A stretch of DNA of 62,740 nt, counting the filler, from Basidioascus undulatus (Eukaryota): NCBI GenBank assembly GCA_000826855.1. It is 5 parts of 5 records of this genome, joined end to end, with 100 filler letters (N's around TTAATTAATTAA, not from the genome) between each part and the next. Parts side by side here need not be neighbours in the genome. Positions count along the whole stretch, not along the records: positions 1 to 12,478 come from JTLS01000903.1; 4 more parts are not named here. One strand, given 5' to 3'. Shown here piece by piece: positions 2,138 through 50,283 of the stretch (positions are counted from its first letter, which is position 1; every line of letters begins with the position of its first letter). A model generated the notes under the pieces. That model was given only the letters and a program-made list of their open reading frames with translations, made no database searches and was not told the origin of the DNA. Both the position numbers and the translations under genes were made by a program.

Positions 2138-2143
2138 AAAAAA
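2138..2143 (-). terminator. RNA polymerase III T-run terminator downstream of the permuted tRNA
   Basis: TTTTTT on the minus strand directly after the 5' half, with a second T7 run at 2118-2112. Confidence 0.6.
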
Positions 2144-2144
2144 G

Positions 2145-2219
2145 TCGTAGTCAGATACTCTACCATTGAGCCAGCCGGCCTTGACCGACGCAGGGATCGA
2201 ACCTGCAACCCCCTGATCT
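2145..2219 (-). tRNA. Circularly permuted tRNA gene (3' half precedes 5' half); Trp-like body, anticodon ambiguous (Trp-CCA or Arg-ACG)
   Basis: Minus strand reads ATCAGG-GGGTT-GCAGG-TTCGATC-CCTGC-GTCGGTC-A (2217-2182, tRNA positions 38-73), then one A (2181), then GGCCGGC-TG-GCTC-AATGGTA-GAGT-A-TCTGA-CT-ACGA (2180-2145, positions 1-37). Acceptor, D, anticodon and T stems all pair across the halves. Confidence 0.75.
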
Positions 2220-2904
2220 CGACTACCACTCGCTCACACTTGTGGTAGGAGTCAAATTCCTAAAGACCTCTCTGAACAAATGCTGTTCCATCATTGTAAC
2301 ACGCTTTCTGCTACACGAGCCCTTGAATCTATACCTACGCATCCTGATACATTAAAGCTGCTATTTTAAAACGAGGATTAGCATTTCCAGTCCAACGAAC
2401 CGATATCTGCCCTTGGAGCCTTAGTCTGGCGGCTGGCACCCCTCGACCCCATCTCCGTTTACTCGCCTGCCCCTTCTTCAGCCTGAAAAGGCTTATTACG
2501 TAAAAGATCACAGTCCTGAGTTCATAACTCTCATTGGGCGGTGCGGCGCAGTTGGGTCGCGAGGCTCCAGTGGCAGTTTCAAGAGTCTTCGAACAAGCAC
2601 GGAGAGCTTGAGCCCGACCGTGTTAACAATAGATAATCAGAGTAGATCTACATTCGCTTGACCGTCCAGGTTGAGCAAAGCCCCTACTCAGACCATAGTC
2701 GACGGTTGGTCCTCTTTTCTCGTCTGGTCCACTCTTCTGGTACCTGGCCGTCTTTCTCGCGCAAGTCAACAAAATGCTCGTCCTGGTCAGTTCCGTTCGT
2801 ATAAAGAATGATCAGGATAGGTTTCTTCATATTTTCAAGTTCACGTCCAAGCTGGGACGCTGTTCAAAGCTTACAGCTCAAACTGCTTTGTAGCCTTATC
2901 TGTG

Positions 2905-12478: not shown

Positions 12479-12578
12479 NNNNNNNNNNNNNNNNNNNNNN
12501 NNNNNNNNNNNNNNNNNNNNNNTTAATTAATTAANNNNNNNNNNNNNNNNNNNNNNNNNNNNNNNNNNNNNNNNNNNN
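12479..12578. other. Artificial contig linker (N44-TTAATTAATTAA-N44)
   Basis: 100-bp spacer with stops in all frames. Identical copies occur four times in the window. Confidence 0.98.
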
Positions 12579-25055: not shown

Positions 25056-25155
25056 NNNNNNNNNNNNNNNNNNNNNNNNNNNNNNNNNNNNNNNNNNNNT
25101 TAATTAATTAANNNNNNNNNNNNNNNNNNNNNNNNNNNNNNNNNNNNNNNNNNNN
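25056..25155. other. Artificial contig linker
   Basis: N44-TTAATTAATTAA-N44. Confidence 0.98.
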
Positions 25156-29271: not shown

Positions 29272-31459
29272 TCAGTCAAGCCCATGGAAGCGCTCGGGCA
29301 AGACGATGGGTGCGACAAGCGCTATGATTGCGGCACCCGAGCCATGCGGGATCAGTCAGCACTACCGCTGGGAAGCAAGGCAACACTAAAGGGAAAGAAT
29401 CGTGACGTACACCAACTGTAGATGGCAAAGCACAGCCAAGAAGAGACGATGCGCATCCACATCGCCGTTACGCTCCGGCCGATCGTGACAGGCTGGTCGC
29501 CCGACTCGGTCTCGTCGCCGACTGCACGGATGACGTTCCTGTGGGGTAGGCGTGCGCAAATGTCAGCTCGACTGGGCGTGGAGAGCAGGAAGGGGGGAAA
29601 AGAAACCTACCAGTCGGTGAGCAGCATGGCAACGTACATCGCCGCCTGCGAGAAGAAGCCATCGAACTTCAGAACATGCGCATGTGAAATTGACGCGTAG
29701 AAGACGCACCAGAGCGAAGATGACGTGGAACCAGGAGTACTGCGAAAGTACTGTGAGTCGTCTTAATGAAGATCGAGGAGACGGAGGGATGAACATACGT
29801 TGTACTTGGTACCGGTGCGCTCGTCGTCGCGAGCCTCGCCAGTAACCTCCTCCTCCTCGTCCGACTCCTCCACCTCGTCGAGAGCAGAAGCGGGGATAGC
29901 ACTGCATGGCGGCAGCGTGGTAAGCCACCGGTCCAGTCCGCTCTAAGCGTACGTCTCGCGCCGCACTTACCCAGCCTCGATAGCAGCCATCATCGCCTGA
30001 ATGCGGATGTTGTCCTTGCGCGTCGGCTGGGTGTTCACGACGCCCATGCCGGCCTCCCCCGTGTCGAGCGCGGAATACCCGTCCGCCGCGTCCCCGCCCT
30101 TCTTCTTCTTGCCCACGAGCGCCTTGCTCTGCGTCGCGGCGCGCGATGTCGAGTACGCGATCGCAAGGAAGGTGAATACCGCGCCGAGGACCACCGTCGT
30201 CGTCTTGGTCGTGCTCGTCGGCCCGCGTAGCGGGTTGCACGATCCGACGTGGTTGACGACCCCGGAGGTGACGAGGTACGTGCAGTACGCGGCCACCATT
30301 CCGGCCTGGGCGAGACCGCTCTTTGGGTTGGCGTCTTGCACCGGCGGGCTGACAGAGAGGATGGTGACGAGAATGCAGAGCGCGAGGTTGAACGAGATGA
30401 AGAACGTGTTGAGGCCGCAGCCGGAGCCGGCGAAGAACGCGTACATCACGCCCGTGAGCGCGATCGTCGCCGCGTAGAGACCGAACGTCGAGCCAAGGAG
30501 GATGAACTTCCACAGGTCCGAATCGCGCCGCTCCCAGTTGTCGAGGCACGTCTCGGACCACGTGTGCGCGAAGTCGACGAGGAGAACGAGCCCGATGAGG
30601 ATGAAGATCGACGCGCCGATGAGGGCAATGTAGTTGCTCCAAACCATAAAGAACTCGTTCGGGATGACGAAGGAGATGACCACGAGTACGAGCCAAGCAA
30701 GAACCCTGCGGGTGGTGCAAGAGCGTCAGCTGGACATTCTCTTGCAGTCACCCAATGCGAGGTTGGCGTACTTCGGGCCCCACCAGCTGTTACGAGCCAT
30801 GGTAGCAATTAGTAAAAATGTTCCATGGGCGGTGTGAAGGCAGTGGTGACGTACCCGTTCTGGATAGAAGCACGCTTGTCGCGGGTGTCCTTGACGCCGA
30901 CAAGCAGCAGTCCCAGAATGAAATGCAGCAGGGAGAGTGCGAAGCAAAACCGGTGCACCTATAGATCCCAGCTTCAGCACTTCATGCCTTTCCCGTTCGC
31001 CTCTTCCCTGTTGCAGTACGAAGGAAGATAGCGCACCGCCAATACGCCATAGCACTTGCCCTCCGTACACTCCATCTTCAGCCAGTCGTAGCTTATCTTC
31101 TCGATGGCGTGGATGGCCCATCGAGTGCGCATGAGCCATGCCAGAAGGGAATTCAGGGTGAAGATGACCTGCACAGGAGCAATGGTTTAGCACGCGTCAA
31201 CCTGTACCCGCGAAAACGCAGGGGCTCACGCCGTAGCCGATACGAGTTGCCACGGACGAGTTGCAGTTGCATGACCTGGAAGTCCCCATCTCTTTAGCCC
31301 CACCGAGGCCGCCCCCCAGCTAATGAGTTTATGGACGCACTTGAACATGGCTGACAACGCAGTGCTCGTGCAGCAGAATGCGGCAGCGCCGATGCAGCTG
31401 GAAGCAATGGTCGCGAGCGGGCCGCCCGCGAAAGGGAGGAAGCCCAAGCAGGCCGCCAT
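29272..31459 (-). CDS. TMS1: Serinc/TDE-family membrane protein (Tms1), multi-exon
   Basis: SCNCNSSVATRIGY, CYGVLAV, IFILIGLVLLVDFAHTWSETC, NPKSGLAQAGMVAAYCTYL, YSWFHVIF...AAMYVAMLLTDW and WMRIVSSWLC...LVAPIVLPERF. Confidence 0.93.
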
Positions 31460-37211: not shown

Positions 37212-37546
37212 GCTGCTAGGTTGGAGGTGCATGGCGGACCGGGAGACTGCGAGGACTTTGTGCGTGAAGGCAATGCTAGACTCAAGTTTGTTCGGAGGCA
37301 AACTATCACAGCCCGAGGTACCAGAAGTCCATTAAAAGCGATTTCGGTGGTGCTTTCCTGTGTCACTGTTCGGAACAAATGCTGCTACCGACAACATCAG
37401 TCAAGAAAGCGAGCAAACGCCTGATCAGTGGCTGCTTCAGAGAGGAGCATAGCAAGATCTGGAACCTGGGCCTACAGTTCAAAAAGGAAAGGAAGCTCAG
37501 TAAAGCGTGCAGGTGTAACACATGCAGTGTGTACTCGGCAAAAGTA

Positions 37547-37623
37547 TGACGAGAGTGGGATTCGAACCCACGCCCTTTCGGACCAGATCCTTAGTCTGGC
37601 GCCTTAGACCGCTCGGCCATCTC
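37547..37623 (-). tRNA. tRNA-Leu(AAG), intronless; first 3 nt cut off by the contig end
   Basis: Minus strand reads ...GAGATGGCCGAGCGGTCTAAGGCGCCAGA-CT-AAG-GA-TCTGG-TCCGAAAGGGC-GTGGGTTCGAATCCCAC-TCTCGTC-A, with a long variable arm. Confidence 0.93.
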
Positions 37624-37723
37624 NNNNNNNNNNNNNNNNNNNNNNNNNNNNNNNNNNNNNNNNNNNNTTAATTAATTAANNNNNNNNNNNNNNNNNNNNN
37701 NNNNNNNNNNNNNNNNNNNNNNN
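37624..37723. other. Artificial contig linker
   Basis: N44-TTAATTAATTAA-N44. Confidence 0.98.
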
Positions 37724-50183: not shown

Positions 50184-50283
50184 NNNNNNNNNNNNNNNNN
50201 NNNNNNNNNNNNNNNNNNNNNNNNNNNTTAATTAATTAANNNNNNNNNNNNNNNNNNNNNNNNNNNNNNNNNNNNNNNNNNNN
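50184..50283. other. Artificial contig linker
   Basis: N44-TTAATTAATTAA-N44. Confidence 0.98.

Follow-up and report, generated by a model that had tools for sequence, protein, structure and literature searches.

Layout of the locus

The window (the whole stretch of DNA that was analyzed, 62,740 nt) contains a tRNA-Arg(ACG) gene whose halves lie in permuted order. On the minus strand, a leader is followed by tRNA positions 38 to 73 (2217-2182), a single base (2181), positions 1 to 37 (2180-2145), one C, and six T's. The locus sits between a bZIP gene and unrelated sequence on contig C2883 of the 32 Mb assembly of the basidiomycete Basidioascus undulatus. A protein encoded on another contig of the window (29970-30725) has named hits in basidiomycetes only, the best ones spread over all three subphyla at 59 to 68%; in a quick tree built from 43 of 240 hits, it forms a long, unplaced branch outside Agaricomycetes and Dacrymycetes. 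Its features, from leader to trailer, are as follows, with leader positions counted back from base 38 (−1, −2, and so on) and trailer positions counted forward from base 37 (+1, +2).

2248..2257, minus strand: repeat of the anticodon-arm 5′ strand followed by CC, described in an initial annotation; private to the window copy and outside the conserved element
2224..2247, minus strand: leader hairpin, arms 2247-2242 and 2229-2224; the 5′ arm near −31 to −28 is partly conserved
2226..2236, minus strand: A-box-like leader element, −19 to −9, scoring 6.95 bits in the window copy
2218..2224, minus strand: leader −7 to −1, resembling the 3′ end of a tRNA intron; the G at −3 (2220) can pair with C32
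2182..2217, minus strand: 3′ half of tRNA-Arg(ACG), positions 38 to 73, with the anticodon-stem 3′ strand, variable loop, T arm, acceptor 3′ strand, and discriminator A73
About 2203-2193, minus strand: B box within the 3′ half
2181..2181, minus strand: intervening sequence of 1 nt between A73 and G1, free among copies (C 20, A 13, T 11, and G 1 in 45 records)
2145..2180, minus strand: 5′ half, positions 1 to 37, with the acceptor 5′ strand, D arm with the native A box, anticodon ACG (2148-2146), and A37 (2145)
2138..2144, minus strand: trailer of one C and six T's, resembling a Pol III terminator; +1 to +7 are 85% alike among copies, against 27 to 29% farther out

When the halves are joined at 37/38, they form a 72-nt tRNA-Arg(ACG) that ARAGORN, run on the rebuilt sequence, calls as a canonical cloverleaf. 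No CCA is encoded at the end of the 3′ half. On the window itself the locus was missed by both ARAGORN and Rfam, which found only ordinary genes for tRNA-Leu(AAG) and tRNA-Ile(AAT). The Leu gene (37546-37627) has its 5′ end cut by one of the four N-padded linkers between separate contigs (12479-12578, 25056-25155, 37624-37723, and 50184-50283); the Ile gene (56215-56131) carries an 11-nt intron with a G at its own position −3. Two kilobases from the Arg(ACG) copy lies a spliced deaminase gene (PF00383; 4261-5410, minus strand), which resembles the gene for Tad2, the enzyme that converts A34 of ACG anticodons to inosine. Because about 30 Arg(ACG) copies exist in the genome, this proximity is probably a coincidence.

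A dispersed family of near-identical copies

The window locus is one of about 30 near-identical Arg(ACG) copies dispersed through the genome. A DNA search returned at least 40 family matches (40 of 45 candidates were scored, and all match). A pattern requiring a B box followed by an A box gave 62 matches, against 3 for the reversed-pattern control, which places the permuted layout far beyond chance; 43 of these matches belong to the Arg(ACG) family, 13 to a second family, and 6 to others. The fetched Arg(ACG) set comprises 45 distinct records with 32 distinct leaders and 29 distinct trailers, both flanks being present in 16 records. Many records stop at contig ends, and the number of genes is therefore put at about 30.

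Conservation among these copies is sharply partitioned. The 72-nt exons are identical to those of the window copy in 23 of 28 complete records, with the remaining five differing at 1, 2, 3, 4, and 8 positions. Among leaders, identity declines from 84% (−7 to −1) through 51% (−19 to −8) and 36% (−31 to −20) to 26% beyond, while the flanks are 26 to 31% alike; past leader −31 or trailer +7, no conserved sequence was found among the copies. Fixed exons, a free spacer, and graded leader and trailer identity are the mark of selection acting on a tRNA and on the signals for its processing. Decayed copies were seen on C161 (L089), C24 (L119), and C1296 (L012), with 4, 8, and 3 exon changes, respectively; the C24 copy has lost its leader and most of the anticodon-stem 3′ strand.

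Read contigs cross the 73/1 junction, and unique flanks enter the core from both sides. The layout is therefore not a scaffolding artifact, with the proviso that those runs may be the genome's own source. Soil run X4 did not cover the window gene. In run X3, a 93-nt contig (record 21) reads 2189-2160 and then 2222-2160, that is, a 63-nt loop (window 2160-2222) in which the D loop is joined to the leader at a 6-nt microhomology and not at the splice sites. The B-box-then-A-box search of the assembly found no tandem copy matching this loop. The library type of run X3 is unrecorded, and the run covers no more than 9 of 30 bins; template switching is the simplest cause of the loop.

Supply of the CGC/CGU-reading tRNA

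A pattern for ACG 5′ halves gave 46 matches (40 for the reversed-pattern control). All 31 family-type halves lie in permuted loci, and three of the other 15 matches were fetched, none of which is a tRNA. In a second ACG pattern search, all 11 non-family matches were fetched, again without a tRNA among them. No ordinary Arg(ACG) gene was found under the patterns tried, in a pattern census that is non-exhaustive and an assembly fragmented into 2992 contigs; for these two reasons an ordinary gene whose D arm is interrupted may have escaped detection. In eight ORF stretches of the window, not all of which are verified exons, CGC and CGT together make up 95 of the 138 Arg codons. Within the limits of the fragmented assembly and the pattern searches, the permuted genes are apparently the only supply of a CGC/CGU-reading tRNA, and with it of a decoder for the most frequent Arg codon.

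Genes for other isoacceptors (Trp, Asn, Lys, Cys, Gln, Asp, Ile, and Leu) have the normal order, some with introns at 37/38, and a Thr(AGT) gene is continuous from the anticodon to the T arm. Ordinary tRNA genes are also multicopy in this assembly. Two organelle-like tRNA clusters of differing composition were encountered as well, one AT-rich (C1206) and one mixed with repeats (C2990 to C2992); these records (L021, L022, L024, and L025) include C952, which holds a bacterial-type Ile/Ala tRNA pair. Given these clusters and this pair, the assembly may hold foreign DNA.

Permuted Thr(CGT) and Arg(TCG) genes

Two further isoacceptors share the arrangement. Thirteen Thr(CGT) genes are permuted at 37/38, with spacers of 8 to 13 nt; they include acceptor-stem variants, and the pairing between leader and trailer differs from copy to copy. 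A CGT 5′-half pattern gave 93 matches, and all 12 credible halves fall among the 13 permuted genes. ACG makes up 50 of the 94 Thr codons sampled in the window ORF stretches. Three diverged Arg(TCG) genes (L152, L159, and L160) are likewise permuted at 37/38. The loci are as follows.

C151, C465, C652, C723, C1001, C1385, C1532, C2298, C2418, C2444, C2688, C2735, and C2830: permuted Thr(CGT) genes L106 to L118
C735:5505-5582: permuted Arg(TCG), spacer of 20 nt
C688:1079-1139: permuted Arg(TCG), spacer of 4 nt
C2924:8484-8540: permuted Arg(TCG), spacer of 0 nt, base 73 being joined directly to base 1

Searches for further families, allowing other A-box endings and spacers of up to about 20 nt, gave 24, 49, and 8 matches (controls, 18, 43, and 9) and yielded only the three Arg(TCG) genes; three matches of the first search and two of the second were fetched, and the others were judged by eye. 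A looser pattern for permuted genes proved too loose, with 304 matches against 515 in its control. No CCG or GCG gene was present among 55 pattern matches (5 fetched, the rest judged by eye), and the patterns used revealed no nuclear gene for Thr(TGT) or Arg(CCG) among the matches listed (100 of 130 in one search). The Thr(TGT) and Arg(CCG) genes may be absent, otherwise disrupted, or lost in assembly. One candidate ordinary Ala(CGC) gene weakens the idea that permutation extends to every anticodon containing CG. One metagenome scan returned 17 loci, by eye without a fungal permuted gene. Six metagenome contigs (L127, L130, L134, L137, L140, and L141) carry prokaryote-like elements with the T arm before the D arm and no evident anticodon arm, which we take to be similar to YrlA-type Y RNAs.

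The A-box-like leader element and transcription

Permutation of a gene puts its native A box downstream of the B box. A weight matrix was built from 12 A boxes of the genome (one of them the Arg(ACG) family's own) and applied to leader positions −30 to −7, with one decayed copy omitted. The best leader scores average 5.6 bits (n = 31), reaching at least 4 bits in 24 leaders and falling below 4 bits in 7; since the copies are related by descent, these scores are not independent. Sequence farther upstream averages −1.7 bits (3 of 31 at 4 bits or more), sequence upstream of 37 ordinary ARAGORN-called genes averages −0.5 (5 of 37), and 200 shuffles have a mean of −0.5 and a maximum of 1.0. True A boxes average 13.1 bits with a minimum of 8.5, by which standard the leader box is degenerate. 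Part of its signal (−11 to −8) could reflect conservation of the leader hairpin, whose 5′ arm region (−31 to −28) is likely the region where transcription starts.

The best leader box begins at −19 or −20 in 26 of 31 leaders, about 22 nt upstream of the B box, which is near the shortest A-box-to-B-box spacing for yeast TFIIIC. Similar elements are visible by eye in the leaders of the Thr and Arg(TCG) copies, and the genome encodes TFIIIC subunits (Tfc1 and Tfc3 B-block domains). Together, these features suggest that the leader element takes over the role of the A box, in contrast to the TATA-type model for algae. For the permuted genes of Cyanidioschyzon merolae, TATA-driven, TFIIIC-free transcription has been proposed, and TFC1 and TFC3 were not found in that alga, as described in a 2014 review (PMC3978253).

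Real genes transcribed in the C. merolae manner, from upstream TATA-like elements without TFIIIC and with the leader kept for RNA structure, would account for some of the same observations, and we regard this as a doubtful but serious alternative. Leader positions −11 to −8 pair with −31 to −28, the corresponding stretch of the Thr copies pairs by eye with the trailer, and several loci appear AT-rich upstream. Yet positions −19, −18, −13, and −12, which fall in the hairpin loop or in a bulge, are kept in 21 to 22 of 32 leaders, and the position of the box is fixed. The presence of Tfc1 and Tfc3 likewise sets the fungus apart from C. merolae as that review describes it (PMC3978253).

The proposed splice junction

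The initial annotation had pointed out that direct joins at 37/38 and at 36/37 both give Arg(ACG) and that the leader end resembles the end of the tRNA-Ile(AAT) intron. Both observations stand: ARAGORN calls Arg(ACG) from either join, the ACG reading is conserved in 32 of 33 records that reach the anticodon, and the G at −3 is common to the leader and the Ile intron. Among Arg(ACG) leaders, this G occurs in 31 of 32 (the exception being a decayed copy), T at −5 in 31, and G at −6 in 29; positions −2 and −1 are variable. Inspection by eye places G(−3) in 11 of 13 Thr leaders and in all three Arg(TCG) leaders as well; two Thr leaders have a G at −4 rather than −3. Because base 38 is fixed while leader positions −1 and −2 vary, the 37/38 junction is preferred to 36/37. 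An anticodon-intron pair of the C32-G(−3) type is used by the yeast endonuclease together with a ruler mechanism, as summarized in the review (PMC3978253).

A relaxed bulge-helix-bulge (BHB) can be drawn by hand at the junction, with bulges of −2, −1, and 38 and of 36, 37, and +1 around the pairs C32-G(−3), A34-U(−5), and C35-G(−6). With a U33/C(−4) mismatch, a central helix of three pairs out of four, and a weak outer helix, it is not a strict BHB. The minimum-energy fold adopts a shifted register in which 35 to 37 and +1/+2 pair with −3 to −7, which would account for the pyrimidine found at −4 in every case. The z-scores for folding lie at only −1.3 to −1.4, and neither fold is significant against shuffles. 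In the Thr genes, leader and trailer change together, as judged by eye only: in L106, +1 to +7 are the exact complement of −12 to −6, and L107, L111 to L113, and L118 have a different set of five base pairs.

Proposed pathway and origin

Taken together, the DNA features make it very probable that the locus functions as a type II (37/38) circularly permuted gene for tRNA-Arg(ACG), belonging to a family of about 30 copies that is the only source found for a CGC/CGU-reading tRNA. The genome contains genes for the expected splicing machinery, namely, two tRNA endonuclease domains (PF01974, twice), Sen54 (PF12928), and a Trl1 ligase domain (PF09511). Expression and processing would, by analogy, follow the pathway modeled for permuted tRNAs of algae (PMC3978253). 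Pol III would start about 30 nt upstream of base 38, with TFIIIC placed on the leader's replacement A box and on the B box in the 3′ half, and would stop at the T run. The transcript would fold as a cloverleaf, its leader and trailer standing in for an opened intron's two ends. The splicing endonuclease would cut at −1/38 and 37/+1 by means of the ruler mechanism and the C32-G(−3) pair, and Trl1 would ligate 37 to 38. RNase P and tRNase Z would then remove the single base between A73 and G1, after which CCA would be added and A34 edited to inosine.

The same product could arise in another order. If RNase P and tRNase Z opened the acceptor loop first, a nicked two-piece precursor would be spliced at 37/38 without passing through a covalent circle. 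This order is compatible with the identity of the gene as a permuted Arg(ACG), and we consider it possible, if distinctly the less likely one. [quoted passage not shown] Circles, however, are the intermediate found in red algae and in green algae, according to the same review (PMC3978253).

The permuted gene most likely arose when an intron-bearing gene was duplicated in tandem and the first 5′ half then decayed, with only its A box spared. The order of leader box, intron-like end, 3′ half, and 5′ half is what the tandem-duplication model outlined in the review predicts for such a decay with the A box kept (PMC3978253).

Mobile repeats, duplication scars, and the Trp route

With about 30 dispersed copies, a few of them decayed (3, 4, and 8 differences), the family might also be read as a tRNA-derived mobile repeat (a SINE or the solo LTR of a Helenus-type TRIM) or as a set of dead duplication scars, making no tRNA in either case; tRNA-derived TRIMs do occur in fungi (PMC10886601). 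We find this reading very improbable. The longest word common to a copy's own flanks averages 4.2, against 4.8 in mismatched pairs (n = 15), so that no target-site duplication is detected. Conservation tracks tRNA anatomy, from the fixed exons and free spacer to the graded leader. Three unrelated isotypes have the permuted layout, no other CGC decoder was found, and ordinary tRNA genes are multicopy in the same genome. The dead duplication scar to which the initial annotation resorted as a fallback is also at odds with the 23 exon-identical records, whose flanks are unrelated.

The initial annotation had proposed that the identity of the window copy depends on the splice path, with a two-step route to tRNA-Trp(CCA) competing with Arg(ACG). 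The bases it named are all present on the minus strand (the CC at 2249-2248 and the hairpin arms as listed above), the repeated 8-mer at 2257-2250 agrees with 2156-2149 at 7 of 8 positions, and removal of 2247-2220 does give a loop that ARAGORN calls Trp(CCA). The route itself fares poorly across the family, as the leader motif it needs occurs in 1 of 32 leaders even with a mismatch allowed. A Trp pattern gave 12 ordinary Trp(CCA) genes, identical and intronless (12 of 30 matches), as against no ordinary Arg(ACG) gene under the patterns tried. Nor is the body Trp-like, which leaves the supposed mismatch between anticodon and body unsupported: the Arg-route tRNA agrees with the genome's Trp body in 45 of 72 bases, below Lys (52) and Ile (50), and the Trp-route reconstruction does so in 48 of 72 (Lys, 52; Ile, 49 to 50). 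We judge the upstream repeat and CC to be a chance match; the dual Trp/Arg identity is likewise fortuitous and confined to a single copy. That the window copy makes tRNA-Trp(CCA) as an alternative to Arg, through removal of 2247-2220 within the anticodon and joining in the anticodon stem, is hardly credible despite the local hairpin and a reconstruction that folds, given that its motif lies at −40 to −31, where leaders are 26% alike and which is probably upstream of the start site, and that it needs two non-canonical cuts from an enzyme described in yeast as fixed to 37/38 (PMC3978253).

Implications

On a wider view, we lean slightly toward a scenario in which three isoacceptors of a fungal lineage, the main arginine tRNA among them, have come to be encoded entirely by permuted genes (about 46 copies); the lineage would keep a second A box in a discarded leader so that ordinary TFIIIC works, and would mature acceptor ends that lie 0 to 1 base apart. 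If so, these genes would preserve an intermediate of the tandem-duplication model and would be, within the literature searched, the first permuted nuclear tRNA system in an opisthokont. Until now, permuted tRNA genes have been regarded as rare relics, found in reduced genomes of algae and archaea and having promoters upstream. In this fungus they are multicopy and apparently the sole source of a major tRNA, alongside standard TFIIIC, endonuclease, and Trl1. Yeast-type tools would thereby make testable Pol III transcription with the A and B boxes reversed, the opening of a 0- to 1-nt acceptor loop, and the tandem-duplication origin of permuted genes. For annotation, this means that in fungal genomes entire isoacceptor families can escape standard tRNA finders.

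Comparison with known permuted tRNA genes

The permuted layout has so far been described only in some algae and archaea. In the literature searched, mostly outside subscription journals, no fungal permuted tRNA gene was found; the 2014 review remarks that yeasts and plants could have such genes and that most eukaryotes do not (PMC3978253), and a 2026 review is confined to photosynthetic organisms (PMC13578239). Comparable elements in fungi are Helenus TRIMs and tRNA-derived SINEs, which are also dispersed short repeats with tRNA sequence and Pol III boxes (PMC10886601). Unlike these, as that paper presents them, the Arg(ACG) family has no target-site duplication and retains a full tRNA complement, invariant exons, and an intact anticodon.

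Among archaeal genes, the permuted tRNA-Tyr(GTA) of Thermofilum pendens shares an intervening sequence of 1 nt, the removal of which the review calls an open question. It differs in being archaeal and single copy, with a 59/60 junction and an encoded CCA (PMC3978253).

By its DNA features, the Arg(ACG) locus belongs with the type II (37/38) permuted genes listed for C. merolae, Ostreococcus, Micromonas, and the Bigelowiella nucleomorph (table 1 of Soma 2014, PMC3978253), and it would be expected to work as they do. It shares with them the 3′ half before the 5′ half, the 37/38 junction, a T run after the 5′ half, and the lack of an encoded CCA, and the motif drawn by hand at its junction may be of the same relaxed kind. 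In C. merolae, too, Thr(CGT) has a type II gene; Arg(ACG) and Arg(TCG) are absent from the review's table (PMC3978253). Like the permuted tRNA genes of the green alga Auxenochlorella, which standard tRNA finders miss (PMC12633428), the fungal locus escapes ARAGORN and Rfam. What is new relative to known permuted genes is the host kingdom, the copy number, the spacer length, and the apparent solution to the promoter problem. The host is a fungus, with about 30, 13, and 3 genes of the three kinds as against 34 in all seven species of that table; its spacers are 1 nt in Arg(ACG) and 0 nt in one Arg(TCG), compared with 5 to 74 nt in algae; and it has an A-box-like leader element together with TFIIIC genes (PMC3978253 for the algal cases).
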